Shown: in pieces, positions 1,316 through 24,278 of the stretch
Layout of the letters: the number at the start of each line of letters is the position of its first letter
Numbering within the stretch: position 1 is the stretch's first letter
Virus record (IMG/VR): IMGVR_UViG_2877973648_000002
Location: 1-44,265 of that record
Direction: 5' to 3' (one strand)
From: a virus
Lineage: Duplodnaviria; Heunggongvirae; Uroviricota; Caudoviricetes
DNA: 44,265 bases
Position numbers and translations under genes: made by a program
The notes under the pieces: generated by a model
The model's database searches: none
What the model was told of the DNA's origin: nothing
The model's input: the letters and a program-made list of their open reading frames with translations, nothing else

Positions 1316-1334
1316 TAGTTAGTGTGGCTTTTAG

Positions 1335-5662: not shown

Positions 5663-5663
5663 A

Positions 5664-5952: not shown

Positions 5953-5987
5953 AAAGAGTGGGCGCAACTAATCACTTGAAAAGAATG

Positions 5988-6703: not shown

Positions 6704-7208
6704 ACAGGCTCGTGAGGCTCTGGATGCCTGGATATGTCGACCAGGAATGACACAGGAGCAGGCGACGATATTAATCACTGAAGCATTCTGGGCTTTGAAA
6801 GAGCGCCCGAACATCGATGTTCAGCGTGTCACAGATGAAGGTGGCGCGGTTGATCAGCGAGCGCTTGGCGTTAATCGAGTGAAGATATTCGAACGCTGGA
6901 AGGCTATCGACACTAGGGATAAGCGTGAAAAGTTCACGGCGCTAGTGCCTGCAATTATGGAGGCTATCCGGATTAATGATTTCAGGTTGTATCGTGAAAT
7001 TAGTGACGGAAAAAGCATCACGTACATGATCGCCGGGTTAAACAAAGAATATGGCGATGTGGTGGAGTCCGGACTGCTTTTTGCTGATCCTGCCGTAGTG
7101 GATCGTGAAACTGACGAACTTATAGAAAAAGCAATTGCTTTCAAACTTGCGTATCGACAGCAATACCAACAAAAAGCTGGATGGAATTATGAGCCTTCTT
7201 TTTGCTGA
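6687..7208 (+). CDS. YdaT-like protein (CII-position gene)
   Basis: 173-aa ORF starting MKITPEQAREALDAWI, overlapping the preceding gene; recalled resemblance to Rac YdaT. Confidence 0.5.
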   Translation: MKITPEQAREALDAWICRPGMTQEQATILITEAFWALKERPNIDVQRVTDEGGAVDQRALGVNRVKIFERWKAIDTRDKREKFTALVPAIMEAIRINDFRLYREISDGKSITYMIAGLNKEYGDVVESGLLFADPAVVDRETDELIEKAIAFKLAYRQQYQQKAGWNYEPSFC

Positions 7209-8154
7209 ACGCCCACTGGTTATAAACACACAGCTTGCGATGAAGATTGGCTTAAATGAAGCCATTGTGTTGCAGCAGTTGCATTACTGGTTGAGAGATA
7301 CCAATTCCGGCATGGAATGTGATGGTGTTCGCTGGATTTACAACACAACGGAACAATGGCTGGAACAGTTCCCATTCTGGTCAGAGTCAACGTTAAAGCG
7401 CGCGTTTGCAAGTCTGAAAACGCTGGGGCTTTTGCGTTGTGAAAAGCTCAATAAATCAAAGCGCGATATGACCAATTTCTACACGATCAACTATGGGAGC
7501 GAGCTTTTAGATGGTGGCAAATTGAACGAATCCATCGGTTCAAAATGCGCCGCTCCATCAGGTCAAAATGACACGATGGAAGAGGTCAAAATGAAACGCT
7601 CCATTGGTTCAAAACGACCCAATGTCATCGGGTCAAAATGGCCTGATGATCTTACAGAGAATACAACAGAGATTACTACAGAGAATAAAAACACTTTTCG
7701 TCCGGAAGCTTCGCAACCGGACCCGCAGACCGCTGAACAGGATTTTTTAACCCGGAACCCCGACGCGGTTGTGTTTAGTGCGAAAAAACGCCAGTGGGGT
7801 AGCAGGGAGGATTTGGCGTGTGCGCAGTGGATTTGGGGGCGGATCGTGAACCTTTACGAACAGGCTGCCAGCGACGATGGAGAGATCATGCGACCAAAAG
7901 AGCCTAACTGGACAGCCTGGGCCAATGACGTGCGCACAATGCGGATGCTGGATGGCAGAAGCCACAGACAAATTTGCGAAATGTTTGGTCGGGTACAGCG
8001 AGATCCATTCTGGGTAAAAAACATCATGAGCCCGTCAAAACTCCGCGAAAAATGGGACGAACTGGTCATCCGCTTGGGACGTTCACCTGTACAGCGTTGT
8101 GTGAATCATATTTCTGAACCGGATACAGAAATTCCGCCTGGTTTCAGGGGATAA
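7189..8154 (+). CDS. Phage replication protein (replisome-organizer type)
   Basis: In-frame ATG at 7189 overlapping the stop of the upstream gene; internal triplicated motif SIGSK (likely iteron-like DNA repeats inside the gene, as in lambda O); conserved phage C-terminal region. Confidence 0.6.
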   Translation: MSLLFAERPLVINTQLAMKIGLNEAIVLQQLHYWLRDTNSGMECDGVRWIYNTTEQWLEQFPFWSESTLKRAFASLKTLGLLRCEKLNKSKRDMTNFYTINYGSELLDGGKLNESIGSKCAAPSGQNDTMEEVKMKRSIGSKRPNVIGSKWPDDLTENTTEITTENKNTFRPEASQPDPQTAEQDFLTRNPDAVVFSAKKRQWGSREDLACAQWIWGRIVNLYEQAASDDGEIMRPKEPNWTAWANDVRTMRMLDGRSHRQICEMFGRVQRDPFWVKNIMSPSKLREKWDELVIRLGRSPVQRCVNHISEPDTEIPPGFRG

Positions 8155-8194
8155 GTGTTGATTTCAGGTCATGAGGTAATTTTAAGGAGGACTT

Positions 8195-8617
8195 GTGGCA
8201 AAAGTTTTTACACAGGAAGAGCGGGAAAAAATTAAAGAGCAGGTGGTCGAACTTGTGCGCCAGAGCGGTCGCGAGACATTACGACAGTTGGAAGCTAAAA
8301 CAGGTGCGACAAGATATCTGATGAGCATTCTTGCCAGAGAGCTGGTTGCCAGTGGTTATGTATACAACTCCGGCTACGGGTTATTCCCGTCTGAACAGGC
8401 ACGAAAGGACTGGCAAAATGCCCGCAAAAAACTCTCTAGGGCGAAGGTGAAGAAACCCGCTGTGGTTGATCCGGACCTTATCTGGTCACTACCTGATGGA
8501 GAAATACGTCGCTACGACAGTCGTCTAAACATAATCTGTCGCGAGTGCCGGAAGAGCGAAGTTATGCAGCGCATATTGTCGTTTTATCAGGGAAATGTTC
8601 GGTATCTATTTAAGTGA
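8195..8617 (+). CDS. Hypothetical protein
   Basis: 140-aa ORF with GTG start 5 nt after AGGAGG; no recognisable motif. Confidence 0.5.
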   Translation: MAKVFTQEEREKIKEQVVELVRQSGRETLRQLEAKTGATRYLMSILARELVASGYVYNSGYGLFPSEQARKDWQNARKKLSRAKVKKPAVVDPDLIWSLPDGEIRRYDSRLNIICRECRKSEVMQRILSFYQGNVRYLFK

Positions 8618-8934
8618 CGAGATTAAAGTGCATTAGTTAAGATGTAAATTGACATTTTCATGGCATAGGGTAGAGGTAGCGTGGTTGTCTGCTTTGTGCC
8701 ATGAACTGATGTCGCTTGTGTGCGTGGCAATTAGTGTATAACGGATATCATCAGACTCCAGCAGTAGCATTGCTTGAGCATACTAACATATGAAATCTTT
8801 AGTTAACGTAAGATAAATTAGATTTAGTATTTTTTTGAGTATGAGCTCATAAATAATCAAAAAAACTTGATACGCCATATGACTTTGATTTATTTTGGAA
8901 AAACATAAAGGTAATGTAATGTAAAGAGGAAAAT

Positions 8935-10422
8935 GTGGACATTAGAGACTGGCTACCAGAATTTCAAGTTTCAGCAGAAACAGATCGGGACTTACAGACC
9001 TATTTTTTTAAGCTACCGGCGATAAAGGATATTATTGAAAGTAGGGCTTGGTTGGTTCTTGGAAGAAAAGGTACTGGTAAAACAGCCATTTATGAACACC
9101 TTAGAAGAGGAAAACCAGCCAATCTCAACGGGTTTTACTCAGTATGTCTAAATTTTAGTGACTATCCATGGCCAGCCCATCAACTTTACAAGGATGCAAT
9201 GGCTGGAGAACTTTCCGCTTATCAAAAAAGTTGGATGTATCTTTTTTATATTAAGGCATTATCTAAACTTATTGAAATAAAAAATGATGCTGGAGAGACT
9301 TTAAACAAAGATCTAACGTGGGCACATAATTATATCAAAACTATCTTTGGTAGTCCCGACCCAACTCTTAGGGAGGTTTTGTTTTCAAAAATAACCAGAT
9401 TAAAAACCATAAAAGGGCCCAGTGCTGGTCTTAATGAAGTATCATTGGACGCAGGTGAAATTTCGTTAGAGGAAGTTGCTGAGAATGCTCAGCTAAAGCA
9501 AAAGCTAAGAGCTAATGCTTTCACATTGCTTACGTATTTTGAAAAAATTTTTAAAGATAACATTGGTAATGAAAAAATAATTATCGCCCTTGACCAATTA
9601 GACGAAAACTGGCTAGAGGGGCAAATTGAAGAATATAGTAAGGTTTTAATAAATCTGCTAAATGTCTGTAGAAACATAGCATCTGATGAACGCCTCAATG
9701 ATAAATTAAAAGTCATTCCCTTCCTACGAACGGATATTTATCATTCTTTGAAATTCAATGATAAAAACAAATTATTGCAAGATAGTGCTATCATAATCTC
9801 ATGGAATGAAAATAATCTAAACGATATGTATTATGAGAGGATAAAGAAATACAAACCTAATGATCTCATATTAGATGACGAAAAGGACAGATCTGGGAAA
9901 GTATTTGAGGTTTCATTCGTTAGGCAGGGGACTCCTCCATTTAAATATATATGTCGCCGTTCTTTCTTTAGGCCTAGGGATATTATTGTCTACTTCAACA
10001 AAATTAGGGCATGTCATAAAAATAATGTCTCAGGTCTTTACACTTCCAATGAGCTTTATGAAGCTGACCGTGAAGCATCTATAAGTGTGTACAATGAGGT
10101 GATTGATGAATGGTCCAACCAATTCCCTGAAATTGAGAACTTACTAACTGTTCTTCAAACTATCCAAGTAGAAACATTCGATTTTAATGATTTTTCCGAG
10201 AAGTGCCGTAATGAATTTGCAGGTATTTCTGATGGGGTGATACGTCAATATATCAACTTCCTGTTTGATAACTCACTTATCGGACAAAAAAAACAAGGTA
10301 GATGGGAATACGTAAGTAGTTTGCCTAACTTAAAAATTAATCTACAAAATGAGTTTAGGACACATCATGCTTTAAAATACAGGTTGCATTTAATAGAAAG
10401 CAGACCGAGCCAAAATATTTAG
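8935..10422 (+). CDS. P-loop NTPase of unknown function (candidate anti-phage defence or abortive-infection gene)
   Basis: 495-aa ORF, GTG start after GAGGA; Walker A LVLGRKGTGKTA near residue 40; Walker B-like IIALDQLDE near residue 215; ~270-aa C-terminal region without recognisable motif; gene and flanks visibly A+T-rich relative to neighbours. Confidence 0.7.
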   Translation: MDIRDWLPEFQVSAETDRDLQTYFFKLPAIKDIIESRAWLVLGRKGTGKTAIYEHLRRGKPANLNGFYSVCLNFSDYPWPAHQLYKDAMAGELSAYQKSWMYLFYIKALSKLIEIKNDAGETLNKDLTWAHNYIKTIFGSPDPTLREVLFSKITRLKTIKGPSAGLNEVSLDAGEISLEEVAENAQLKQKLRANAFTLLTYFEKIFKDNIGNEKIIIALDQLDENWLEGQIEEYSKVLINLLNVCRNIASDERLNDKLKVIPFLRTDIYHSLKFNDKNKLLQDSAIIISWNENNLNDMYYERIKKYKPNDLILDDEKDRSGKVFEVSFVRQGTPPFKYICRRSFFRPRDIIVYFNKIRACHKNNVSGLYTSNELYEADREASISVYNEVIDEWSNQFPEIENLLTVLQTIQVETFDFNDFSEKCRNEFAGISDGVIRQYINFLFDNSLIGQKKQGRWEYVSSLPNLKINLQNEFRTHHALKYRLHLIESRPSQNI

Positions 10423-10499
10423 CTTACATCCATCTCCATTAAGAAATCTTGCTATTGTTCTTATGGATCGTCTTTCTGACTGATTTCATATTGGCGAGG

Positions 10500-10694
10500 T
10501 AACGGTAGTTAAGTAGAATGGCTGCGGGTGCTTGAGGCTATCTGCCTCGGGCATGAACACCAAGGGCAGATAGAGAAAAGCCCCAGTTAACATTACGCGT
10601 CCTGCAAGACGCTTAACATTAATCTGAGGCCAATTTCATGCTAGACACATGTAGGTTAGCCTCTTACGTGCCGAAAGGCAAGGAGAAGCAGGCT
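10500..10694. promoter_or_regulatory. hok/sok-type leader region (hok mRNA 5' UTR, mok overlap, antisense Sok target)
   Basis: Segments GCTTGAGGCTATCTGCCTC and TAGCCTCTTAC match recalled conserved elements of hok mRNA leaders; lies directly upstream of the hok start. Confidence 0.45.
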
Positions 10695-10781
10695 ATGAAG
10701 CAGCAAAAGGCGATGTTAATCGCCCTGATCGTCATCTGTTTAACCGTCATAGTGACGGCACTGGTAACGAGGAAAGACTGA
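10695..10781 (+). pseudogene. hokD: Hok-family type I toxin gene (HokD/RelF-like), truncated after codon 28 by IS3
   Basis: Translation MKQQKAMLIALIVICLTVIVTALVTRKD then TGA supplied by the first bases of IS3; matches recalled HokD/RelF N-terminus. Confidence 0.6.
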
Positions 10782-10808
10782 TCCTACCCACGTAATATGG
10801 ACACAGGC

Positions 10809-11675
10809 CTAAGCGAGGTTCTGGTTTTCAAATTGTTCCGGACTGAGGCCGCCACACCAACTGTGCCGCCGCCACCGATTGTAATCACATTCGATATAAT
10901 TAAATACCGTTGCCCGCATTATTTCCCGGCTGATAAAGTGTTCTCCATGGATACATTCCACTTTCAGCGAATGAAAGAAGCTTTCCACGCAGGCATTATC
11001 GTAGCAGCAACCTTTTGCGCTCATACTTCCACGCAGATTATGCCGCTTCAGTTGCGCCTGATAATCTGCTGAACAGTACTGGCCTCCACGGTCCGTGTGA
11101 ACGATAACGTTCCGGGGCCTCTTACGCCGCCACAGCGCCATCTGCAGGGCATCGCAGGCCAGTTGCGCCGTCATGCGTGGCGACATTGACCAGCCAATAA
11201 CGGCACGTGACCACAGGTCAATGACCACTGCCAGATACAGCCAGCCTTCATCTGTACGTAAGTACGTGATGTCTCCTGCCCACTTCTGGTTCGGGCCACT
11301 GGCGTAAAAATCCTGCTCCAACAGATTTTCTGACACAGGCAGGCCGTGTGCGCGGTAGCTGACCGGGCTGAACTTCCGGGAGGCCTTTGCCCTCAGTCCC
11401 TGACGGCGCAGGCTTGCCGCCACGGTTTTTACGTTAAAGGGGTAACCCTGAGCACGCAGTTCATCCGTCAGGCGTGGGGCACCGTAACGCTGTTTTGACC
11501 GGGTAAAAGCCGCGAGGACAACGCTGTCGCAGTGTTGGCGGAACTGCTGACGCGTGCTTATCCTTGTCCGCCGCTGACACCACGTATACCAGCCGCTGCG
11601 GGCCACCCGGAGCACGCGGCACATTGCTTTGATGCTGAACTCAGCCTGATGTTTTTCAATAAAGACATACTTCAT
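10809..11675 (-). CDS. insF: IS3 transposase OrfB (DDE integrase domain)
   Basis: 288-aa ORF matching recalled IS3 InsF ([32 protein letters not shown]...). Confidence 0.95.
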
Positions 11676-11971
11676 TTCAGGCGCTTCGCGAAGTATGTCG
11701 CGGCCTTTTGGAGGATAGCCAGCTCTTCATCCCGTTCTGCCAGCTGGCGTTTGAGACGTGCAATCTCGGTAGACATCTCCAGTTCACGTTCAGAAGACGT
11801 CTGCTGATTTTGCTGTTTACTGCGCCAGTTGTAGAGCTGTGATTCATACAGGCTGAGTTCACGGGCTGCGGCAGTAACACCGATGCGTTCAGCAAGCTTC
11901 AGGGCTTCACTGCGAAATTCAGGCGAATGCTGTTTACGGGGTTTTTTACTGGTTGATACTGTTTTTGTCAT
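11672..11971 (-). CDS. insE: IS3 transposase OrfA (HTH)
   Basis: [35 protein letters not shown]...; overlaps insF in ATGA fashion, consistent with the IS3 frameshift arrangement. Confidence 0.95.
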
Positions 11972-12036
11972 GTGAGTCACCTCTGACTGAGAGTTTACTC
12001 ACTTAGCCGCGTGTCCACTATTGCTGGGTAAGATCA

Positions 12037-12273
12037 CCTGCAATGACCCCGCTGATGCTGGACACATCCACCCGTAAGCTGGTTGCGTGGGATGGCACCA
12101 CCGACGGTGCTGCCGTTGGCATTCTTGCGGTTGCTGCTGACCAGACCAGCACCACACTGACGTTCTACAAGTCCGGCACGTTCCGTTATGAGGATGTGCT
12201 CTGGCCGGAGGCTGCCAGCGACGAGACGAAAAAACGGACCGCGTTTGCCGGAACGGCAATCAGCATCGTTTAA
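12037..12273 (+). pseudogene. D: Head decoration protein D, 3' fragment beginning at the IS3 junction
   Basis: Translation from the IS3 boundary [78 protein letters not shown] matches recalled C-terminus of lambda gpD. Confidence 0.85.
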
Positions 12274-12291
12274 CTTTACCCTTCATCACTA

Positions 12292-12317
12292 AAGGCCGCC
12301 TGTGCGGCTTTTTTTAC
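12292..12317 (+). terminator. Hairpin plus T-tract between D and E
   Basis: AGGCCGCctgtGCGGCT followed by TTTTTTT. Confidence 0.5.
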
Positions 12318-12328
12318 GGGATTTTTTT

Positions 12329-12604
12329 ATGTCGATGTACACAACCGCCCAGCTGCTGGCGGCAAATGAGCAGAAATTTAAGTTTGATCCGCTGTTTCTG
12401 CGTCTCTTTTTCCGTGAGAGCTATCCCTTCACTACGGAGAAAGTCTATCTCTCACAAATTCCGGGACTGGTAAACATGGCGCTGTACGTTTCGCCGATTG
12501 TTTCCGGTGAGGTTATCCGTTCCCGTGGCGGCTCCACCTCTGAATTTACGCCGGGATATGTCAAACCCAAGCACTTAGCATGGCTTTCTGAGGCTTTCGT
12601 GTAG
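12329..12604 (+). pseudogene. E: Major capsid protein E, 5' fragment interrupted by island insertion
   Basis: MSMYTTAQLLAANEQKFKFDPLFLRLFFRESYPF...GYVKPKH matches recalled lambda gpE N-terminus, then 9 unrelated codons (LAWLSEAFV) and stop. Confidence 0.85.
12564..12573. repeat. attL core (AACCCAAGCA) of the island, within E codons K-P-K-H
   Basis: Identical 10-mer at 23488-23497 at the other junction. Confidence 0.7.
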
Positions 12605-12736
12605 TTGCTGGTTTTTACACTTAATCTTTTGATAATAAAGAATAAGTTTATCTGGCGCTTTCACTGGATTTTCCTCGTTATCTGTGTGTTGCAATCATCT
12701 CTGTATTGCAGCTTGTATTGCTTTTTGGGGCTAAAA

Positions 12737-13972
12737 ATGGCTGGCGAGAACAAACTGAGCGACAAAGCACTTAAAGGATATCTGGGGAAACCCAGAGAAA
12801 AGCAGATCACCATTGCTGATGGAAAGGGGCTTTCTATTCGTGTGAGTACCAAGGGGGCTGTGAGCTTTGTTTTCTTCTACAGGTTAGCAGGTGGCCGGGC
12901 TGCTCCGGTCTGGCTAACGTTGGGTAAATATCCTGATATGTCACTCAAACAGGCAAGGGAAAAGCGCGACGAGTGCCGTGGTTGGTTGGCTGACAAACGT
13001 GATCCGCGTATCCAGATTAAGATTCAGGCTGAAGAACGCTTAAAGCCGGTCACAGTGGAGGATGCACTAAATTACTGGTATGAAAATTACTGTAAGGTGC
13101 GTCGTAAAACTCATGCTGTAACGCTTGGCAGATTTCGAAAGCATATCTTTCCCTATATCGGTCATTTGCCCGTAAATGACACTCACCTATATGAATGGCT
13201 GGACTGTTTTGACCGAATTAAACGTAATGCACCAGTTATGGCGGCGTATGTTTTTTCTGACACTAAATTAGCTCTTCGTTTTTGTCGGGTACGCCAGTAC
13301 GCGACGTGTGATGCTTTAAAGGATTTGCGCATGAGTGATGTGGGGCAGATTGCAGGTAAGCGGGATCGGGTTCTGGATGAAGCCGAACTGGGCCAGCTCT
13401 GGAAGGCAATTTTTGTCGAGCCTGATTTAAAACTAATGTCTGAATACACGCGAAAAATGTTTGTGCTTTGTACAGTATTTGGATGTCGAATGAGTGAAGC
13501 CCGATTATCTGAATGGAGCGAATGGGATCTCGAAAGTTGGGTTTGGACTGTACCAAAAGATCACTCAAAAACTGGTGTTGAAATCGTCAGACCAGTACCT
13601 GAAATTCTACGACAGTGGGTAACGGATGTTCACGAAGAGACAAAACATACTGGTTATGTGCTGGGAAGTCTGCGAATTAGAGAAAGCGTAAGCAAGATTG
13701 GGGGGAAAATCGGTAAACGTTTGGGCCATGAAAAACAATGGTCACTACACGACCTTAGAAGAACGCTATCTACTCATCTAAGTGATCTCGGTGTTGAATT
13801 TTATGTAGTAGAACAACTGTTAGGCCATGCGCTACCTGGCGTGGCAGGTGTTTACAACCGGAGTAAGTTTATGGCTAAAAAACTGGATGCTCTGGAACTC
13901 TGGACTACATATCTCAATAGCATCGCAGGTGCTGATTCAAAAGTGACAATCCTCAAACAAAAGGCTGGTTAA
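12737..13972 (+). CDS. int: P4-type tyrosine integrase of the island
   Basis: 411 aa from the ATG at 12737; catalytic-region motifs (HDLRRT, LGH, Y in GVYNRS); adjacent to attL; the upstream 44 codons of the ORF look non-coding. Confidence 0.85.
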   Translation: MAGENKLSDKALKGYLGKPREKQITIADGKGLSIRVSTKGAVSFVFFYRLAGGRAAPVWLTLGKYPDMSLKQAREKRDECRGWLADKRDPRIQIKIQAEERLKPVTVEDALNYWYENYCKVRRKTHAVTLGRFRKHIFPYIGHLPVNDTHLYEWLDCFDRIKRNAPVMAAYVFSDTKLALRFCRVRQYATCDALKDLRMSDVGQIAGKRDRVLDEAELGQLWKAIFVEPDLKLMSEYTRKMFVLCTVFGCRMSEARLSEWSEWDLESWVWTVPKDHSKTGVEIVRPVPEILRQWVTDVHEETKHTGYVLGSLRIRESVSKIGGKIGKRLGHEKQWSLHDLRRTLSTHLSDLGVEFYVVEQLLGHALPGVAGVYNRSKFMAKKLDALELWTTYLNSIAGADSKVTILKQKAG

Positions 13973-13973
13973 C

Positions 13974-14201
13974 ATGAAAAAAATGGCAATTGTTGATAAA
14001 AAGGGTCTGGAGTACATTCCTAACATCGATCGTATGATCCGTGAGAAAGAATGTCGGGAGCTAACCACTCTTGCAAACAGCACACGCTGGAAGCTGGAGA
14101 AGGAAGGAAAATTTCCTAAGCGGATCAAGATTGGTTCCACTGCTGTTGCATATCGTCTTTCAGAAGTGCAGGCATGGATTCGAGGTGAGTGGGTAGTTTA
14201 A
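13974..14201 (+). CDS. alpA: AlpA-family transcriptional regulator / excisionase-like protein
   Basis: 75-aa ORF starting 1 nt after the int stop; small HTH-like protein in the position AlpA/Vis occupies in P4-like and PICI elements. Confidence 0.65.
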   Translation: MKKMAIVDKKGLEYIPNIDRMIREKECRELTTLANSTRWKLEKEGKFPKRIKIGSTAVAYRLSEVQAWIRGEWVV

Positions 14202-14270
14202 ATTATCTCAGAATAAAATATTATGAATTACTGATTTGAGAATTTGTACTCAAATCAGTAATAACATTCT

Positions 14271-14807
14271 TTATAAGAGATTAAATCCAAATAAAGAGTA
14301 ATCATATACAGGGGTGCATTGCATCCCACTGAATATGCTGATGTTTTTTTCTGTTTCTATCCTTTTTTCAATAAGTTGTTGTATATTTTTACAGTACAAT
14401 TTGTGTGTGATGTTATTATCGTAAGCCTGATATAGCAACGTCAATGTTGACGCTAGGAAACATACAGATAAAATTAAAATAATATATGCAGTTTTTTTAT
14501 TTTTTGTCCATGATCTATTTGTTTGTGAAATATAAAGAATTCTGAGGTGGATAATGGTGAGAGACAATAGCAGGCCACTCAATAAAATAAGTATTGGGTT
14601 TGCGTATTTTATTAATGGTTGAGAGAAAAAAACTATTATAGCTCCTGTGACTGCGTATGAGAAAAAGGAGTGATTAAACTTCTTACTCCTTCTCTCAAGT
14701 ATTTTAATTTCATCTTGTGTGGGGGTTTTAGATGCCTCTAATATAAGTTTATTGAATGTTTCTGTTATCTTGTTTTTTGTGTTTGTGGCTATTTTTTTTA
14801 GATTCAT
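14271..14807 (-). CDS. Hypothetical integral membrane protein (A+T-rich cargo gene)
   Basis: 178-aa ORF with about three hydrophobic helices; strongly A+T-rich; convergent to int-alpA. Confidence 0.5.
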   Translation of the reverse strand: MNLKKIATNTKNKITETFNKLILEASKTPTQDEIKILERRSKKFNHSFFSYAVTGAIIVFFSQPLIKYANPILILLSGLLLSLTIIHLRILYISQTNRSWTKNKKTAYIILILSVCFLASTLTLLYQAYDNNITHKLYCKNIQQLIEKRIETEKNISIFSGMQCTPVYDYSLFGFNLL

Positions 14808-15157
14808 AGCATTCTAACTCCCTTAACTTATTTATTACTTTCTCTTTATGATAAGAGAGGGGAATGACTTGGTAAAGTGATTTGTCATTAATAATGATAA
14901 TCCTTGCGATAAATATTTCTGCAAGTTATTTATCTGTTTGTTGCTATCTTGTTAAGCGTTGGGTGTGGTTTATGTTTGGAGCGACTTTATTTAATCGTGA
15001 TTTTATGGATTTATATTTATATCCTGTAAGATAAGCGCATGTTAGTTCAGGAGTAGTGTCAGATAAAATTATTCGGAGTAGAACTACCTTTTCTGTTTAT
15101 TGCCAGTATTTACATAGCAATGCGCCGTAGTTACTCACATCACGGCGCTGATACTAA

Positions 15158-15460
15158 TTATTCAGATTCTTTGGCTTTACGCCGCTGGAGTTCTTCACGA
15201 GCGACGGCTACGAGTTGCCCGATTTCCTCCGCTGCCTTGATGCCGATTTGTTCGACCTTAGCTAAGGCATCCAGTGAAGACACGAGGGGATTTTCTCCGC
15301 TTCCTTCTGCCTGGCGGCGGGCGATCTCACCGCGCATGGCGGTTACTATGAATCCGGCGTTGCTTTCGCCGTCCAGTTTTACGGATTCCATGCCCTCCAT
15401 AACATCGTGGGGAACCCTGATCGTTGTCATTTGCGATTTTGCATTTTTGTATACAGACAT
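15158..15460 (-). CDS. Ribbon-helix-helix-type transcriptional regulator (probable island repressor)
   Basis: 100-aa ORF; segment MTTIRVPHDVMEGMESVKL consistent with an RHH beta-strand/helix; divergent from an operator-rich promoter region. Confidence 0.5.
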   Translation of the reverse strand: MSVYKNAKSQMTTIRVPHDVMEGMESVKLDGESNAGFIVTAMRGEIARRQAEGSGENPLVSSLDALAKVEQIGIKAAEEIGQLVAVAREELQRRKAKESE

Positions 15461-15480
15461 AGTTAATCACCAATTTGTTA

Positions 15481-15582
15481 TGTGTATATCACTATACACA
15501 AAAGTGAGATATAAAAACACTTGCAATGTATATCACCACAATATAATGTATATCTCACATTATGGTCGCTATGTATCTCACA
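15481..15582. promoter_or_regulatory. Operator array and promoter of the island
   Basis: Palindrome TGTGTATATCACTATACACA (15481-15500); repeated ATGTATATC/ATGTATCTC boxes; TTGCAA (15521-15526) and TATAAT (15542-15547). Confidence 0.5.
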
Positions 15583-15668
15583 ATGATCGATTCATAAAAA
15601 CGACGAAACCCGGCAGTGCGCGAACACTAACCGGGCTTCTAACCAAACCGTTAAACGAGGTAACGACT

Positions 15669-16034
15669 ATGGCTGGAACACAGCATACCCAAACTCACCC
15701 TAAATTTATATACATCTTTCTGGCGCTACATCGCGATCGCATAGCAGATGGAGCAACTACGGTACATGTAGCCGCTGACACGCTGGTTGATGCCCGCAAG
15801 ATGGTTAAGGAGATGGGCTATACTGCGGCTTTCTGGAAAGGGCGGGAAGAAAACACGCTGTTTATTCAGAAATGTGAAAACAATTTCATCTGGCGTTTTA
15901 TCGCCCTGAGTACGGCACAACCGCGCGTGATTACCATCGAGGCCACCAGCGAACAGGAAGCCCGCCAGCAATCCCCAACTGGCTGCGTGATGATATTCGC
16001 CGCCCGTATTCGTCAGGAGGTGTGCCATGAATGA
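15669..16034 (+). CDS. Hypothetical protein (first gene of island rightward operon)
   Basis: 121 aa from the ATG at 15669 with GAGG RBS; the annotated 304-aa ORF is over-extended across the operator region. Confidence 0.5.
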   Translation: MAGTQHTQTHPKFIYIFLALHRDRIADGATTVHVAADTLVDARKMVKEMGYTAAFWKGREENTLFIQKCENNFIWRFIALSTAQPRVITIEATSEQEARQQSPTGCVMIFAARIRQEVCHE

Positions 16035-16251
16035 TCTTTATTTTAAAGTGCTGACACATGCTGAAAACGCGCTCGTTTGTGGCAAAAATATGCGAGAAAT
16101 CTTATCAACCTGGCTTGATGGGACAACAAATGCGGAACACGATGAACGGGATGCTAATTTAGCTGGAGCGTTAATTACGTTACTTGATCCTGTCATCAAA
16201 GAGCTGGATGAAGCTATAAAAATACACGACCAGAGCTATACCGGAGAATAA
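16027..16251 (+). CDS. Hypothetical protein
   Basis: 74-aa ORF overlapping the previous stop; acidic. Confidence 0.45.
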   Translation: MNDLYFKVLTHAENALVCGKNMREILSTWLDGTTNAEHDERDANLAGALITLLDPVIKELDEAIKIHDQSYTGE

Positions 16252-16253
16252 AA

Positions 16254-16541
16254 ATGAAAAATAAATTTTCTGGCTTTATTGCCAGCGGTCAAACTCATTC
16301 AAAAATCAGCCTTGGGGATATTTTCAAAGATAGCTATGGCTATCGAGTAAAGATTATTTCGGTTGATGATCGCCGTGTCTCTTATTTGCGTGATGGTTAT
16401 GATTTTGAATGTGTTATGCCGCGTCAGCAGTTCGAAAGAGATTTCATTCTGGTAAAAAATTGCAAGACAGATAATCAGAGGCGTGCCGCAGGCTATATCC
16501 GCAAAATTCGGGCAATGTTAGTTGCCGGAGGTAACAAATGA
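16254..16541 (+). CDS. Hypothetical protein
   Basis: 95-aa ORF tightly packed between neighbours. Confidence 0.45.
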   Translation: MKNKFSGFIASGQTHSKISLGDIFKDSYGYRVKIISVDDRRVSYLRDGYDFECVMPRQQFERDFILVKNCKTDNQRRAAGYIRKIRAMLVAGGNK

Positions 16542-18358
16542 AACGTGCTCCGAACTTAAAATACCAACCGCGCGACAAAATGACAGAAGTCATCATTTTT
16601 GCTGGCAGTGATGCCTGGAGCCATGCAAAAGAATGGAATGAATGGGCGGGTAAGCATATTGCAGCAGATGATACACCACCAGTAATTCTGGGTACGGAAC
16701 AACTGGAAAACCTGGATGATATGCAAATTATCGATGAAGGCCGTCATTATGTGCGTGTTTATCGTGCCGGAAAGATCGCAGAGAAAAATCTGACGAAGGT
16801 TGCGACATTACTTGCTATTGCAGGCGTAAAGGAAGCACGTTGTTACCGTAGCTTTGTTGATCGAGAGCCTGAAGACTGGACTCCGCGCCTTGTCGGCCTA
16901 AAAGCTGAAGCGGAGCATGGGGAAAGTCTGGTGATTGAACTGCCAGTGAAGAAGGCAGAGCGCAAAAATGACGAGCGTGCTTCATCTTTGGCGTTGAATC
17001 AGATGGGGGCCAGCCAGCGCGGTGAAGTTCTCCTGGCACATTACGGCGGCGAACTGGCAATCAATGCCGACTCTGACACCGTTCATCATTACAACGGCGT
17101 TGTATGGGAGCCGGTTCAGGATAAAGAGTTACAGCGTGCTATGGCGCAGATTTTCATTGATGCGGAGATCAGCTATTCGCAGAACGCCATTAAATCGGCG
17201 GTAGATACCATGAAGTTAAGTTTGCCTGTAATGGGGAATACAGCCCGTAACCTGATTGGATTCAGTAACGGGGTATTTGATACCAGAACAGGTAATTTTC
17301 GGGAGCATAACAAAAACGACTGGTTGTTAATTGCCAGTGAATTACCTTTCAGCCCACCAGCAGAGGGGGAAACGCTGGCAACACATGCGCCGAATTTCTG
17401 GAAGTGGTTGCGCCGTTCGGTGGCTGAGAATGACCGCAAGGCAGATCGCGTACTGGCGGCATTATTCATGGTGCTGGCGAACCGGTACGACTGGCAGTTA
17501 TTCATTGAGGTAACAGGGCCGGGGGGAAGTGGTAAAAGCGTGATGGCGGAGATTTGCACCATGCTGGCGGGTAAGGCTAATACAGTATCAGCAAGCATGA
17601 AGGCGCTGGAAGATGCAAGGGAACGTGCGTTAGTGGTTGGCTTTTCGCTGATTATCATGCCGGATATGACCCGCTACGCTGGTGATGGGGCAGGGATTAA
17701 GGCCATTACAGGCGGTGACAAGGTGGCAATTGACCCGAAACACAAAGCCCCCTATTCAACGCGTATTCCGGCAGTAGTGCTGGCGGTTAACAATAACGCC
17801 ATGTCATTCAGTGACCGCAGCGGGGGGATCTCACGTCGTCGGGTGATATTCAATTTTTCGGAAGTTGTACCGGAGAACGAACGCGATTCGATGCTGGCGG
17901 AAAAAATAGAAGGTGAGCTGGCGGTAGTGATTCGTCATCTGCTTACACGGTTTGCTGATCAGGACGAAGCCAGACGCCTGTTATATGAGCAGCAGAAATC
18001 TGAAGAAGCACTGGCGATAAAGCGAGAGGGGGATTCGCTGGTGGACTTCTGCGGCTATCTCATGGCATCGGTAATGTGTGATGGCCTGTTAGTGGGTAAT
18101 GCTGAAATTGTGCCATTCAGCCCACGCAGGTATCTCTATCATGCCTATCTGGCTTATATGAGGGCACATGGGTTTGGTAAACCTGTAACACTGACGCGCT
18201 TCGGTAAAGATATGCCGGGGGCAATGGCGGAATATGGCAGGGAGTATATGAAACGGAAAACGAAGCACGGTTTGCGTTCAAACGTGACACTGACGGAGGA
18301 ATCAGAAGACTGGATGCCATCATGTGTATCGGTCACTAATGACGATAGCAAAAATTAA
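16538..18358 (+). CDS. Primase/helicase-type replication protein (D5/P4-alpha-like SF3 NTPase)
   Basis: 606-aa ORF; Walker A VTGPGGSGKS; Walker B-like LIIMPDMT; overall resemblance to phage/plasmid primase C-terminal helicase domains; followed by iterons. Confidence 0.75.
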   Translation: MKRAPNLKYQPRDKMTEVIIFAGSDAWSHAKEWNEWAGKHIAADDTPPVILGTEQLENLDDMQIIDEGRHYVRVYRAGKIAEKNLTKVATLLAIAGVKEARCYRSFVDREPEDWTPRLVGLKAEAEHGESLVIELPVKKAERKNDERASSLALNQMGASQRGEVLLAHYGGELAINADSDTVHHYNGVVWEPVQDKELQRAMAQIFIDAEISYSQNAIKSAVDTMKLSLPVMGNTARNLIGFSNGVFDTRTGNFREHNKNDWLLIASELPFSPPAEGETLATHAPNFWKWLRRSVAENDRKADRVLAALFMVLANRYDWQLFIEVTGPGGSGKSVMAEICTMLAGKANTVSASMKALEDARERALVVGFSLIIMPDMTRYAGDGAGIKAITGGDKVAIDPKHKAPYSTRIPAVVLAVNNNAMSFSDRSGGISRRRVIFNFSEVVPENERDSMLAEKIEGELAVVIRHLLTRFADQDEARRLLYEQQKSEEALAIKREGDSLVDFCGYLMASVMCDGLLVGNAEIVPFSPRRYLYHAYLAYMRAHGFGKPVTLTRFGKDMPGAMAEYGREYMKRKTKHGLRSNVTLTEESEDWMPSCVSVTNDDSKN

Positions 18359-18364
18359 ACTTAT

Positions 18365-18601
18365 GGAATAACTGTTCACCACTGTTCACCCTGTCATAAA
18401 TATCTTTTATATCAGTATATTATAGGGTGAACAGTTATTTATGAACTGTTCACCAAACTATTCACTGTTCACCTTTTTGATTGTTTATTGAGCTTCAAGG
18501 GTGAACAGTGGTGAACAGTTGGTGAATAGTTTTTGTGAAACTGTTCACCCATTAACATTATGAATTAAAAGAGAAAATATCAAAAGGTGAACAGGTGAAG
18601 G
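18365..18601. repeat. Iteron cluster / putative replication origin of the island
   Basis: About 10 copies of CTGTTCACC / GGTGAACAG in both orientations, including tandem pairs, flanking an A+T-rich spacer. Confidence 0.7.
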
Positions 18602-18645
18602 GTTAAAACGCAAAAATTTTAATTTACTGCTGTGAGATAAAGCCT

Positions 18646-18891
18646 ATGACAGCGAAGCACACAAAAAAATCACAATCGCACGCCCTTGATTTGACGGAAC
18701 ACTGGTTAAGGGTGTCGATAAAAATCATCGACCGCAACGCCGGGGAAGGATACGCGAAAGCACATCCCGAACTGATTAGCGCATTCATGACAACGGCGGC
18801 TGCAAACTTTGCCACTCTGACCGAACGGGAGATTGCTGAAGCGGAGGAAGTGACAACAATCAATATTAAGTCCGGAGAGCAGGCAGCATGA
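18646..18891 (+). CDS. Hypothetical protein
   Basis: 81-aa ORF overlapping the start of the SSB-like gene. Confidence 0.4.
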   Translation: MTAKHTKKSQSHALDLTEHWLRVSIKIIDRNAGEGYAKAHPELISAFMTTAAANFATLTEREIAEAEEVTTINIKSGEQAA

Positions 18892-19337
18892 CGGCGCAAA
18901 TATCAGTTTACGGGCGGTTGGTGGACGACCCGCAGACAAAACAGACCAGCAAGGGCACCCCCATGACGCTGGCGCGTATGGCGGTATCACTGCCCTGCAG
19001 TCAGTCGGATGACGGTCAGGCGACGATGTGGTTATCTGTCCTGGCGTTTGGCAGACAAGCCGACGCGCTGGCAAAGCATCACAAAGGCGAACTCCTGAGC
19101 GTGGCGGGTAACATGCAGATGAGCCAGTGGACTGGACAGAACGGCGAAACGCGGCAGGGCTGGCAGGTTATCGCAGACAGCGTAATCAGTGCGCGATCGG
19201 TGCGACCGGGCGGCAATAAAGGCCAACAGGGGCAGGCTACTGACGCACTGAACAGAGCAAAACAACAGGCAGATCAGCAAGGAAGCCAGCCACCAGTGGG
19301 AGATAATGAGCAATGGGGAGATGATATCCCGTTTTAA
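18888..19337 (+). CDS. ssb: Single-stranded DNA-binding protein (SSB-like)
   Basis: 149-aa ORF with OB-fold-like N-terminus, Gly/Gln-rich linker and C-terminal acidic tail ending DDIPF as in bacterial SSB. Confidence 0.7.
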   Translation: MTAQISVYGRLVDDPQTKQTSKGTPMTLARMAVSLPCSQSDDGQATMWLSVLAFGRQADALAKHHKGELLSVAGNMQMSQWTGQNGETRQGWQVIADSVISARSVRPGGNKGQQGQATDALNRAKQQADQQGSQPPVGDNEQWGDDIPF

Positions 19338-19355
19338 ATATTGCCAATAAAAAAA

Positions 19356-19380
19356 GGCCGGAAAAAATAAATTTTCCGGC
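19356..19380. terminator. Hairpin after ssb
   Basis: GGCCGGAAAA...TTTTCCGGC stem; A-tract upstream, so U-tract on the minus strand; no T-tract downstream on the plus strand. Confidence 0.35.
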
Positions 19381-19554
19381 ATGCTACATAAATCCCGACC
19401 AAAGGGAGTGAAGATATTAACACTAATTTTCCGCACTGAAGTTGTCACCCCAAAACTTTATACAACATTGCACTCGGTTGCATGTATTCGCATGACAAAT
19501 ATCGGTGATAGCATATATCCACAATTATTTTTAATGAATGCAAAGAGGATGCGT

Positions 19555-20595
19555 ATGGTTGATTTATATTCGCCTACTCAGCTTGTACAGGTGGTTAATG
19601 CTGTAGATGTACAAAAACAACTAAATGCGTTGTTTACCAGTTTGTTTTTTACTCGCTCGGTAATGTTTGAATCGCGCGATATTATTCTTGATACAATCGA
19701 CGATCCAAATATCCCAATTGCAGCGTTTTGTTCTCCTATGGTGGGTAGTAAAGTTTCACGTGACGAAGGGTACGAATCAAAAACAATTCGTCCAGGCTAT
19801 ATGAAGCCGAAAAGCAGCATTGATCCAAATAAGTTAGCTGTGCGCCCTGCTGGTGTATCACCTGAGCAATACAATGCTTTTGGGGCGCGTAATATTAAAG
19901 TTAAACAGGCGATTGTAAATCAAGCTAAAGCTATTCGTGCACGTATTGAATGGCTTGCTGTTCAGGCAATCACAACGGGGAAAAATATCATTGAGGGCGA
20001 TGGTATTGAACGTTATGAGCTGGACTGGAATATTAAACCACAAAATATCATCACTCAGTCTGGCGGTGCTGAGTGGTCAGGTAAGGATAAAGAAACTTTT
20101 GATCCAAATGATGATATTGAGAGCTACGCAGAATTTAGTGAGGGCGTCACTAATATTATCATTATGGGCGGTAATGTATGGAAGAAATACCGTTCATTCA
20201 GAGCGATAAAAGAGGCTCTGGATACCCGTCGTGGTTCTAATTCCGAACTGGAAACGGCCCTTAAAGACCTTGGTGATTCGGTGAGTTTTAAAGGGTATAT
20301 GGGCGATGTTGCGATTGTTGTTTACAGCGGGCGTTATACCGACGAGGACGGAACAGAAAAACATTTCCTTGATCCTGATTTGATGGTGCTTGGCAATACG
20401 GCTCTTCAGGGGATTGTCGCCTATGGCGGTATTCAGGATCCGGAGCTAATCCGAATGGGGCTGACTAAAGCCGAACTTGCACCGAAAAACTATATTGTGC
20501 CTGGTGATCCGGCTATTGAATATGTGCAGACACATTCAGCACCACAGCCAATACCGGCCCGCATCAATCGTTTTGTTACCGTTCGCATTGGCTAA
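19555..20595 (+). CDS. Major capsid protein, diverged lambda gpE homologue
   Basis: 347 aa from the ATG at 19555 (AGAGG RBS); alignable by eye along its length to lambda gpE (e.g. GYMKPKSSIDP vs GYVKPKHEVNP; RRGSNSELETALKDLG...GDVAIVVYSG nearly identical). Confidence 0.8.
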   Translation: MVDLYSPTQLVQVVNAVDVQKQLNALFTSLFFTRSVMFESRDIILDTIDDPNIPIAAFCSPMVGSKVSRDEGYESKTIRPGYMKPKSSIDPNKLAVRPAGVSPEQYNAFGARNIKVKQAIVNQAKAIRARIEWLAVQAITTGKNIIEGDGIERYELDWNIKPQNIITQSGGAEWSGKDKETFDPNDDIESYAEFSEGVTNIIIMGGNVWKKYRSFRAIKEALDTRRGSNSELETALKDLGDSVSFKGYMGDVAIVVYSGRYTDEDGTEKHFLDPDLMVLGNTALQGIVAYGGIQDPELIRMGLTKAELAPKNYIVPGDPAIEYVQTHSAPQPIPARINRFVTVRIG

Positions 20596-20604
20596 GGGGG
20601 AGCA

Positions 20605-20946
20605 ATGGCTACTCATTACACTGAACTCATGGCTGGCACTGAAGCACTGGTGACTACGCTGGGGATATTTTCAGCTAATAAAGGGGTAATTCCTGCATTT
20701 ACGCCACTGATGCAGGAAGATGCAACAGGTGCACTGGTAGTATGGGATGGTTCGAGCGTAGGTAAAGCGGTTTATGTTTCCGCTGTACAAATCGACACCG
20801 CGAAAAAAACACAGGCTCAGGTCTATAAGACAGGTGTCTTAAATGTTGATGCTCTGAACTGGCCTGAGTCTGTTAAAGAACTGTCAGTAAAGGTTGCAGC
20901 GTTTGTTGGCTCAGGTATTTCTGTTCAGCCGCTGGCTCGTGTGTAA
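20605..20946 (+). CDS. Head decoration protein, lambda gpD homologue
   Basis: 113-aa ORF; VVWDGSSVGKAVYVSA and C-terminal region parallel gpD ([18 protein letters not shown]). Confidence 0.7.
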   Translation: MATHYTELMAGTEALVTTLGIFSANKGVIPAFTPLMQEDATGALVVWDGSSVGKAVYVSAVQIDTAKKTQAQVYKTGVLNVDALNWPESVKELSVKVAAFVGSGISVQPLARV

Positions 20947-20957
20947 AGGGGGATACA

Positions 20958-21341
20958 ATGCAGAATGATTACAATGACCTTAAGCCAATTGCCGAAATGA
21001 TGTACCCGAATCAAGCTGTAGAGGAATTAAAAGCTATCGCTGACAAAATGTGTTTAAGCGAGCGCCTTGTTGATATGAATCAGGTGATGGAAATTACAAC
21101 CCTGAGTCGTCGTACACTGCTAAACCTTGAGGCTAGTGGAGAGTTCCCGGAGCGTGTGCAGGTTACGGAAGGGCGTAAGGCCTGGTATTTAAGTGAAGTG
21201 ATCGACTGGATAAATAATATTCCTCGCGCTTCTGAATATTGCCGCGTACCTGTCCCAAAAAAGCCAGATGCGGCGCTATGCCTCAAGATTGAGCGTGTAC
21301 GCCGCAATGCACGGGATGGTCGCTATAAGCTGATTGGTTGA
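20958..21341 (+). CDS. AlpA-like HTH protein (second copy)
   Basis: 127-aa ORF; central segment MNQVMEITTLSRRTLLNLEASGEFPERVQVTEGRKAWYLSEVIDWI resembles the AlpA/phage-regulator HTH. Confidence 0.5.
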   Translation: MQNDYNDLKPIAEMMYPNQAVEELKAIADKMCLSERLVDMNQVMEITTLSRRTLLNLEASGEFPERVQVTEGRKAWYLSEVIDWINNIPRASEYCRVPVPKKPDAALCLKIERVRRNARDGRYKLIG

Positions 21342-21583
21342 TGAAATTAGGGCCCGCTCTGGCTGGCGGGTCCTTTCCGGCGATCCAGAACGTTACGGGG
21401 CGTCAGGCGCGCAGATTCTTGCTATTTATGACAATTTTCTGCGATTTGCCGTTTCTGTTCTTCTTCGTTGTAACTATATGTTATTAATGGAAATGCCACC
21501 TAAAAAGAAAGGAAATGGTAAGCGCTATTTTGAGCTAAAAACAGCTTAACCGTTTCCTTTCTCCAAAATTTACTGAGGCGGCT

Positions 21584-22009
21584 ATGAATCCATGCGCAGA
21601 AGTCATGACAACTATCAAACTAAGCGGATCTTTAGCTTCTTTGTTCGCCAGAGAACATCAGCGCCTTATCGGTCCGACGCGTGAGGCATTAAGGGTATTA
21701 TCAGCCACTATTCCGGGATTTGAGAAATTCATGAACACTAGCAAGGCTTGAGGACTCACTTTCGCCGTGTTTGTGGATAAAAATAATGTCGCGCAGGATG
21801 ATCTCGATTTTCCAAATGGTGGTCGTACGATTCGAATTGTTCCGATCATTATGGGGAGTAAGCGTGCTGGTGTTCTGCAAACCATTCTTGGCGCTTTCTT
21901 GGTGGTTGGTGGTGTTCTGGGGGCAACGATAGGGCAAGCATGGAGCGGTGGTGTGTGGAGCGGCAAGTATTTTCTATTGGCAGAAGCCCATTCCGCCAAG
22001 ATAGGCTAG
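21584..22009 (+). pseudogene. Tail assembly protein I-like gene, interrupted by stop/frameshift
   Basis: 21584-21751 encodes MNPCAEVMTTIKLSGSLASLFAREHQRLIGPTREALRVLSATIPGF... (parallels the lambda gpI N-terminus) then stop; homology resumes in another frame at 21767-22009 (TIRIVPIIMGSKRAGVLQTILGAFLVVGG). Confidence 0.45.
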
Positions 22010-22104
22010 ACGTATAAGATCGGTTACAATCTATAAATCAGCTGTTGAATTATTGAATTTTAACCATATTTATCAGATGGACTTCATTCAAAAAGGTAAC
22101 TTTG

Positions 22105-22791
22105 ATGGCCGGACAATTAGACGAAGCAGCAAAACAGATTTTGGGTACCTTACTGGCAGATTTTACAGATCGAGGGTTAACTGCACAGGATTTAAAAAAT
22201 GGTTATGAAGGCCCGAACATCAATGCGCTAGCTACTGCAGTATGCAACGTCGCTGATTTTACATCTGTAGATTTTGAAGTTGCCTTTGGCGATCTCGAAA
22301 AAAGCAAACTAATCAAAACTGGCCCCATGAAAATGTTCGATAATGATCACAATAGCTCTGTGATCATTATTGCTTCTTATAGCCTACGTGAATATGTTTA
22401 TTTGACGGAGGCTGGATACAAGGAGTCCAGGAAAGTACCAAATCGCCCACAACGTGTTCAGCGTATAGTCAATAATCTAACGATCACCGGCGGACATTTC
22501 AGCAATACGCAATTAGGGCAGGGAGAGGTCGTTTCCCAAACCCAAAACATCACAAGCAGTTCCGATTCTGAAATAGTTGCTAAGCTGATTTCTATCATTG
22601 AAGAACAGGGGCAAGTAGTTAACAGCGATCAACGTTCTGATATTGAAGCAGCTGTGGCAGCCGCTAATGAAGGTGATGGTAAAGAAGCGAAATCATTGCT
22701 GTCTAAAGTATGCGGTCCTGTTTGGGAGTCTGTGCAACCAGTAATATGGCCGATCATTGGTGAGTTGGTTAAGAAAGGGCTCGGGATTTAA
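22105..22791 (+). CDS. Hypothetical protein (island cargo)
   Basis: 228 aa from the ATG at 22105 with AAGG RBS; no recognisable motif; A+T-rich. Confidence 0.5.
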   Translation: MAGQLDEAAKQILGTLLADFTDRGLTAQDLKNGYEGPNINALATAVCNVADFTSVDFEVAFGDLEKSKLIKTGPMKMFDNDHNSSVIIIASYSLREYVYLTEAGYKESRKVPNRPQRVQRIVNNLTITGGHFSNTQLGQGEVVSQTQNITSSSDSEIVAKLISIIEEQGQVVNSDQRSDIEAAVAAANEGDGKEAKSLLSKVCGPVWESVQPVIWPIIGELVKKGLGI

Positions 22792-22983
22792 TTTAATAAA
22801 TTCTAAAAGGGCTGTTTGGGTAGTATTTTTATGGGGCTCTTCAATTAAAAGGAGTCATAGGGTCAAACGATGTGCCTATGACTCCTGGATAAAGCCATCA
22901 GAGAATATTAGTGTTAACAATTTCTCTTCAGCCCTTGTTTATACGATGCCAGCTTCAGAACCGAATCAACGCTCATGCGATCT

Positions 22984-23271
22984 TTAGCATCTCGGTAATG
23001 ACAGTAAGTTATTATTCCATCGACCATCAGCATAAGTACGTATAAATTTCCGCCCTCCCCCTCCTGGATCAACGACACCTACATCAGCACGTTTGCCATA
23101 ACTATCAGTGACATAGAAAGTATGTAACTTGTTCTCAATTGAATTAACTACATCTGCCACAGTCCACTTACTTCCAGGGGGATTAAATTGAGGGCTTCCC
23201 ACATGAGTAATGTGTTCATGAAGGGCGTTCGAACTGGAGAGAGTAATACAAGTTAATCGTACATCAACCAT
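22984..23271 (-). CDS. Hypothetical small protein (island cargo)
   Basis: 95 aa from the ATG at 23271 with AAGGAG RBS; glycine-rich loop DPGGGGRK; convergent with the 228-aa gene. Confidence 0.45.
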   Translation of the reverse strand: MVDVRLTCITLSSSNALHEHITHVGSPQFNPPGSKWTVADVVNSIENKLHTFYVTDSYGKRADVGVVDPGGGGRKFIRTYADGRWNNNLLSLPRC

Positions 23272-23487
23272 CTTCAACTCCTTATTTACTGTGAAAAATC
23301 ATAAGATACAGCATGTATCGAAATACAGCAGGGTGAACAATTTCGATTTACGAGGACTTAGCAAAGTCTCTTTCTCTTAAACTGAGGGCTTGTATTGCAG
23401 GTTGTATTGCAACTGTAGCTAAGCAATATCAGTTGTAAGCTTTATTTCTTTTACAGTCAATCGTATAGCATCGTATTTGACTCATGT

Positions 23488-23497
23488 AACCCAAGCA
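23488..23497. repeat. attR core (AACCCAAGCA) of the island
   Basis: Identical to 12564-12573; E coding sequence continues immediately after. Confidence 0.7.
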
Positions 23498-24278
23498 TGA
23501 GGTGAATCCGCAGATGACCCTGCGTCGCCTGCCGGATGAAGATCCGCAGAATCTGGCGGACCCGGCTTACCGCCGCCGTCGCATCATCATGCAGAACATG
23601 CGTGACGAAGAGCTGGCCATTGCTCAGGTCGAAGAGATGCAGGCAGTTTCTGCCGTGCTCAAGGGCAAATACACCATGACCGGTGAAGCCTTCGATCCGG
23701 TTGAGGTGGATATGGGCCGCAGTGCGGCGAACAACATCACACAGTCCGGCGTCACGGAGTGGAGCAAGCGTGACAAGTCCACGTATGACCCGACCGACGA
23801 TATCGAAGCCTACGCGCTGAACGCCAGCGGTGTGGTGAATATCATCGTGTTTGACCCGAAAGGCTGGGCGCTGTTCCGTTCCTTCAAAGCCGTCAGGGAG
23901 AAGCTGGATACCCGTCGCGGCTCTCATTCCGAGCTGGAGACAGCGGTGAAAGACCTGGGCAAAGCGGTGTCCTATAAGGGAATGTATGGCGATGTGGCCA
24001 TCGTCGTGTATTCCGGACAGTACGTGGAAAACGGCGTCAAAAAGAACTTCCTGCCGGACAACACGATGGTGCTGGGGAACACTCAGGCTCGCGGTCTGCG
24101 CACCTATGGCTGCATTCAGGATGCGGATGCATTGAGTGAGGGTATTAATGCGTCTCCCCGTTATCCGAAAAACTGGAAGACATCCGGCGATCCGGCGCGA
24201 GAGTTCACCATGATTCAGTCAGCACCGCTGATGCTGCTGGCTGATCCTGATGAGTTCGTGTCCGTTCAACTGGCGTAA
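23490..24278 (+). pseudogene. E: Major capsid protein E, 3' fragment
   Basis: From the attR repeat the frame reads PKHEVNPQMTLRRLPDEDPQNLADPAYRRRRIIMQNMRDEELAIAQVEEMQ... to ...ADPDEFVSVQLA, matching recalled lambda gpE residues ~80-341; a stop lies immediately upstream in frame. Confidence 0.85.

Follow-up and report, generated by a model that had tools for sequence, protein, structure and literature searches.

Deletion linked to an insertion sequence (IS) is an ordinary, well-known way of prophage decay. Qin of E. coli K-12 and the "grounded" lambdoid prophages, which lie at the same site as the prophage described here (rspB to ydfJ), have decayed by such IS-linked deletions; for Qin, the gene order used in this comparison is that known for K-12 and that annotated in its relatives. 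In the lambdoid prophages of E. coli O157, deletions of adjacent prophage DNA are linked to IS629, an IS3-family element, and an IS-excision enhancer is known. The chromosomal hok loci of E. coli K-12 were reportedly found by Pedersen and Gerdes in 1999 to be inactivated by insertion sequences, with the IS elements just downstream of hokA, hokC and hokE in that strain. The grounding of a lambdoid prophage by an IS-scarred deletion that also disables a chromosomal hok locus is an already known phenomenon.

IS copies that lack a target duplication are explained either by adjacent deletion or by recombination between IS copies (PMC11708052). For IS150, a member of the IS3 family, all of the 14 associated deletions in the Lenski lines were insertions followed by adjacent deletion; they left an intact IS at the scar without a duplication, and they spanned tens of bp to tens of kb (PMC11708052). 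The helper-embedded satellites (HE-PICI) of the 11capE type are inserted in the capsid gene E of the helper and co-oriented with it, with a 10-bp identity block, an E homologue, AlpA and a primase, and such a satellite is modelled as relying on its helper both for late transcription and for packaging (PMC10111431).

The window analysed here, the whole stretch of 44,265 nucleotides, contains a lambdoid prophage that has very likely lost about 15 kb of internal DNA, with one IS3 copy left at the scar. The chromosomes of E. coli AREA_C483 (human stool, USA) and 1218KP (human, Czech Republic) both match the window at 100% identity. The prophage is bounded by rspB, beside the integrase, and by a truncated ydfJ, which places it at the Qin site, as in XH988 and AH04. 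Its relatives share with Qin the set of hokD, rem, ydfU, Q, essD, rrrQ, rzpQ, cspI and gnsB around the same site, but the window prophage is complete only in its early region and its tail module, with the middle gone. Like the IS150 deletions, it carries an intact IS without a duplication at the scar; in contrast to them, the element is IS3 itself, the host is a natural isolate, and the two-step history is one that we infer rather than one that was observed. The hok locus is IS-disabled as in K-12, but here the IS3 interrupts the reading frame itself, at codon 28, and is tied to a large deletion. The IS629-linked deletions of O157 are comparable in that an IS3-family element in a lambdoid prophage goes with loss of adjacent prophage DNA, but the IS is a different one.

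The extent of the element was defined by its two ends. The IRR-end sequence TGATCCTACCCACGTAATATGGACAC had a single match in the window, at 10779-10804 on the plus strand, and the IRL-end sequence TGATCTTACCCAGCAATAGTGGACAC also had a single match, at 12011-12036 on the minus strand, where none was expected by chance for either; both equal the known IS3 ends with zero mismatches. The complete IS3 thus delimited is 1258 bp long (10779..12036, minus strand, from the IRR end at the lower coordinate to the IRL end at the higher one), and the window has no further copy. It carries orfA (11672-11980, minus strand, Pfam HTH_Tnp_1) and orfB (10809-11675, minus strand, Pfam rve, rve_2 and HTH_21), and RefSeq labels it as IS3-like with a programmed frameshift. 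The terminal inverted repeats are imperfect, with 28 of 39 positions matching in an ungapped comparison, and ends of the IS3 class begin with TGATC. Compared with six other E. coli IS3 copies, the window copy showed 1-5 differences per 1258 positions, and only six sites varied among the seven copies, which is too few to show or exclude a chimera.

The triplets that adjoin the window IS3 are GAC (left) and CCT (right), and a 3-bp target duplication is absent. The flanks of six further IS3 copies from related loci were read with the identical end definition. Four of the seven copies had a perfect 3-bp duplication and are simple insertions: QML220601 (CTC/CTC, inside hokD and 3 bp downstream of the window's site), XH988 (CTG/CTG), STS63-1-E (GTA/GTA) and O121 RM8352 (AGC/AGC, within the hok leader). 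The remaining three had no duplication and unrelated sequence on the two sides, namely the window copy, between truncated hokD and truncated D, the AH04 copy (15663-16920, TGT/CTC), between truncated exonuclease and lipocalin genes, and the ES2 copy (GGT/GTT), which has hok on the left only and a right side that is not hok. In the window and AH04 copies, both neighbouring genes are truncated. Since the same definition yielded perfect duplications at four other copies, the boundaries of the window IS3 are not misplaced, and shifting them to recover a duplication was ruled out on the same ground; the reading of GAC and CCT as unmatched flanks, made in the initial annotation, held on this re-examination. 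The missing duplication is a real signal of rearrangement around an element that is still IS3. The set serves as a worked example, in that among the seven IS3 copies examined a missing duplication always accompanied rearrangement.

Two short sequence similarities near the ends were considered and set aside. The motif GAAAG occurs 2 bp inside both breakpoints, in hok as GGAAAGAC directly before the break (window 10771-10778) and in D as GCGAAAGCG directly before the break (AH04 33692-33700), but other IS3 targets were without such a motif, and this microhomology is probably due to chance. A 7-bp extension of a BLAST match beside the AH04 IS3 was tried as a hok remnant and proved to be merely a mismatched extension.

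At the left junction, the hok/sok regulatory leader is intact (10526..10700, plus strand) and matched Rfam RF01794 (sok) over the full model length, with 116.6 bits and an E value of 2.7e-27 (gathering score 59). The truncated hokD (10695..10781, plus strand) consists of 28 codons (10695-10778) followed by TGA at 10779-10781. IS3 begins directly after codon 28, the GAC that ends at 10778, and the TGA that stops the toxin is formed by the opening three bases of the IS3, just as had been claimed earlier. The 28-residue product covers positions 1-23 of the 42 positions of the HOK_GEF profile (PF01848, E 7.7e-8), and the intact allele at the same place in XH988 has 51 codons and covers positions 1-42; the window hokD thus lacks 23 codons together with its entire 3' region, and RefSeq annotates it as a pseudogene without a C-terminus. 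In R1 hok, premature-stop substitutions led to loss of function at 18 of the 20 codons where a single substitution could give a stop, and toxicity was also abolished by two 3'-UTR substitutions (PMC9841398). With 23 codons and the mRNA 3' end missing, comparison with these R1 hok mutants indicates a loss of toxicity, and the toxin encoded by the truncated hokD is very probably dead.

In the K-12-like prophage of TUM9868, a hok leader fragment adjoins ISEsa1 about 3 kb from hokD (18131-18321 and 21622-21791), and hokD itself is located behind relBE. Compared with TUM9868, the arrangement in the window, with the leader contiguous with hokD, looks like the less rearranged state. Just upstream of the window's hok leader, at 8935-10422, a 495-residue protein is encoded that RefSeq names "P-loop ATPase, Sll1717 family". 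It gave zero Pfam matches at E 0.001 and may be a defence or accessory gene of the prophage. The left arm with this ATPase is common to about 37 genomes.

At the right junction, IS3 abuts a head decoration gene of the lambda D type, of which the 3' part remains (12037..12273, plus strand), comprising codons 33-110 and the stop. From 12037, the window has 100% identity to AH04 gene D starting at nucleotide 97, that is codon 33 (AH04 33701-33937), and the match continues over 12037-12573 with 100% identity to AH04 and 99.8% identity to TUM9868. Relative to these two genomes, D is without its first 32 codons; the remnant covers positions 33-113 of the 116 positions of the Pfam HDPD profile, so that the full-length domain is absent, and RefSeq annotates it as a pseudogene without an N-terminus. 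The initial annotation had IS3 joined to the middle of gene D. Its contact with the 3' part of D was borne out, but the break lies at codon 33 of 110, about 29% into the gene. An in-frame ATG remains at 12043 in the remnant (12043-12273, 76 codons), from which a shortened decoration protein could be produced if the region is transcribed. The 5' part of a lambda-E-type major capsid gene follows (12329..12573, plus strand, about 81 codons, Pfam Phage_cap_E positions 1-77) and is colinear with AH04 gene E up to AH04 34237. According to the AH04 alignment and the annotation, the 3' part of gene E lies at 23488..24278 (plus strand), and FI, FII and the tail genes continue from there to the truncated ydfJ; over 23488-35138, the window was 98.3% identical to AH04 34228-45879.

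The deleted segment was mapped by comparison with relatives. Positions 1-10778 of the window are colinear with the same-site prophage of XH988 up to the exact IS3 boundary, where XH988 runs on into intact hokD, and AH04 is likewise colinear from the other IS3 end. In TUM9868, both breakpoints were found 15,404 bp apart within one co-oriented prophage at the Qin site. The interval between them begins with the hokD 3' end, rem, a hypothetical gene, ydfU, Q, blc, ybgA and an HTH gene, continues with essD, ydfR, rrrQ, rzpQ, cspI, ymcF, ynfR, ynfN, gnsB, ydfO and ynfO, and ends with nohA, the large terminase, a W-like gene, the portal, the S49 protease and codons 1-32 of D. This content agrees with the earlier prediction of a deletion that removed the hok 3' end, the nin/Q/lysis region, terminase, portal, protease and the 5' end of D, and hok was never naturally beside D in the related prophages. 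The figure of 15.4 kb is an estimate taken from a mosaic relative, because no intact relative pairs this left arm with a lambda-type head. The window's right end (tail fibre, pin, ydfK and truncated ydfJ) matches XH988, and together with the layout from rspB to ydfJ this match shows that both arms of the window prophage are native to the Qin site. The nearest match for the truncated D and E with the satellite junction, in strain 980-2, was set aside, its prophage being at the DLP12 site instead.

Neither AREA_C483 nor 1218KP was among the best 60 matches to the segment from portal through protease to the D 5' end, all of which had at least 98.5% identity, and the truncated D and E occur at one place each in the two genomes. 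These best 60 matches and the single place of the truncated genes suggest that the segment was lost and not relocated.

An intact relative with the window's left arm and a lambda-type head was found neither in the chimeric-query search nor among the six left-arm relatives inspected. The query was 11.8 kb long and consisted of the window left arm and the TUM9868 interval up to the terminase; zero records covered both of its ends, and no genome in this search had the Sll1717-ATPase left arm joined to lambda-type nohA and terminase. In all six relatives, the head module was of another kind, with a fusion of ClpP-protease and capsid. This lack of a matching pair is what would be seen if the prophage were a hybrid made through IS3 from an XH988-like resident with IS3 in hokD and a lambda-head prophage with IS3 in D, in tandem or imported, with more than 15 kb lost. 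Such an origin is improbable in our judgement, for it demands two IS3 insertions as well as a tandem or imported prophage, and an ordinary mosaic ancestor is easy to obtain, since the lambda-type and the ClpP-fusion heads are both found at the Qin site and the middle region from hokD to gnsB is common to both. Ordinary lambdoid mosaicism accounts more simply for the unmatched left arm and head.

BLAST with the junction queries found both IS3 junctions together in 2 of 5,426 complete E. coli genomes, AREA_C483 and 1218KP, where they are base-identical. IS copies are classic misassembly sites, and a collapse of the assembly over several IS3 copies could in principle create such a junction, as a simple insertion with a mutated duplication could imitate the missing repeat. 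We attach next to no probability to these trivial readings: two complete assemblies, made from isolates of different countries, are the same at every base here, and the two flanks are parts of genes between which relatives have 15 kb of DNA. Because two independent assemblies have the same structure, it is evidently no assembly artefact, and the distribution is that of a single event inherited within a small lineage.

For the deletion itself, we infer an order of events and a transposase-driven mechanism in two steps. IS3 would have landed in hokD at ...AAAGAC, with its IRR end facing the hok 5' end. The IS3 transposase would then have used codon 33 of D, within the same DNA molecule, as a target for the IRL end, in an adjacent deletion that would drop everything between the points in hokD and D and leave IS3 intact. 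The GAC flank would be retained on one side and an unrelated CCT flank gained on the other, which would leave no target duplication. This route is plausible, and we hold it with middling confidence. It was favoured because one insertion is needed where recombination needs two and because hokD is a recurrent IS3 target in the same orientation; the repeated targeting weakly favours hok as the first insertion site. The preference is a weak one, since the parental states were unseen, Qin-site prophages often carry several IS3 copies and the IS3 sequences are too uniform to reveal a chimera.

The parental states were sought in several ways. A parent would share one junction with the window, so BLAST was run with each of the two actual junctions, and full matches came only from the two deleted genomes, AREA_C483 and 1218KP. 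IS3 in hokD at GAC with the hok 3' end kept was absent in the 5,426 complete E. coli genomes, and so was IS3 in D at the CCT site. Exact patterns were scanned in the form of an IS3 end followed by 0-3 bases and CTCTGCGAGGT, and of GAAAGCRCCT followed by an IS3 end; both parental patterns gave zero matches in the metagenome, viral and species-representative collections. A parent with IS3 in hokD and an uncut hok 3' end would contain GGGTAAGATCAGACCTCTGCGAGG, and one with IS3 in D and an uncut D 5' end would contain GAAAGCGCCTTGATCCTACCC. An inversion or translocation would instead have left a second IS3 between ...GCGCCT, from the D 5' end, and GACCTCTGC, from the hok 3' end.

Alternatively, one prophage could have had two directly repeated IS3 copies, the first in hokD between duplicated GAC triplets and the second in D between duplicated CCT triplets. 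RecA-dependent recombination between them would have looped out 15 kb together with one IS3, and it predicts exactly the hybrid GAC/CCT flanks that are observed. It is a standard cause of duplication-less IS copies (PMC11708052), and its substrates are common: AREA_C483 carries about nine IS3 copies, and Qin-site prophages elsewhere often have two or three. We nevertheless consider it a minority possibility, as it requires two independent insertions in one prophage beforehand and neither single-insertion state occurred in the genomes or in the viral and metagenome scans. An absence of intermediates is also what would be left by a single step in which IS3 was captured into the break of an unrelated deletion during repair, without a staggered transposase cut; such a capture, proposed as a hypothesis in PMC11708052, would likewise give no duplication. 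It was, however, proposed there for IS5 and IS481 and not shown for IS3, and both IS3 ends are base-exact in the window, like transposase-made junctions, which makes single-step capture very improbable here. Our results thus support the part of the original claim that saw a deletion scarred by IS3, while its term "IS3-mediated" covers at least two mechanisms that these data do not separate. The case adds nothing new to the known mechanisms.

The locus is of modest interest for two features, the repeated strikes of IS3 on hokD in independent lineages and the disabling of the helper of an embedded satellite by the deletion. The hokD locus has received four independent IS3 insertions, which fall in a stretch of about 150 bp and share one orientation, the IRR end facing the 5' end of hok: in the leader in O121, at codon 28/29 in the window, at codon 29/30 in QML220601 and at about codon 41 in ES2. 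The coordinates of the element in the other three cases are 2649-3906 (locus L008), 6273-7530 (locus L002) and 2619-3876 (locus L007, ES2). It is conceivable, though in our view unlikely, that hokD is a preferred, orientation-specific landing site of IS3, through a DNA or RNA structure that attracts the element or through selection for silencing of the toxin, and that such insertions seed large deletions which ground Qin-site prophages and have here stranded a satellite.

With Q and late-gene control, the holin, lysozyme and spanin, both terminase subunits, the portal and the protease gone, the prophage is predicted from its gene content to be capable of neither host lysis nor DNA packaging. 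A single deletion scarred by IS3 accounts for the presence of early genes and a complete tail module without lysis and packaging genes.

The head module has a second break, caused by a helper-embedded satellite of the HE-PICI 11capE type (12574..23487, plus strand, 10.9 kb) inserted in gene E; this insertion is separate from the IS3 event. The satellite splits E at codon 82 and is co-oriented with it, and a 10-bp identity block, AACCCAAGCA, occurs on either side of it (12564-12573 and 23488-23497). Its genes encode an integrase of the P4 type, AlpA and a primase of the D5 type, and it has homologues of E and D of its own, with 42% and 38% identity to those of the helper. The E/satellite junction was present in 173 of the 5,426 E. 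coli genomes. In its place and orientation within E, the identity block, the E homologue, AlpA and the primase, the element agrees with the 11capE satellites described above (PMC10111431), but its helper here is without Q, terminase, portal and protease. The satellite would therefore be stranded in a dead helper, the IS3 deletion having taken the helper's late transcription and packaging. The satellite copy in 1218KP carries an additional IS5.

Parallel IS-scarred deletions were seen at the same site in two other prophages. In AH04, the IS3 copy without a duplication joins the truncated exonuclease gene to truncated blc, and in KW21, an IS1 (8752-9449) joins rrrQ to a truncated capsid gene. 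The KW21 IS1 lies between this lysozyme gene and the capsid remnant, at the place where the spanin, terminase and portal genes of the relatives are absent.
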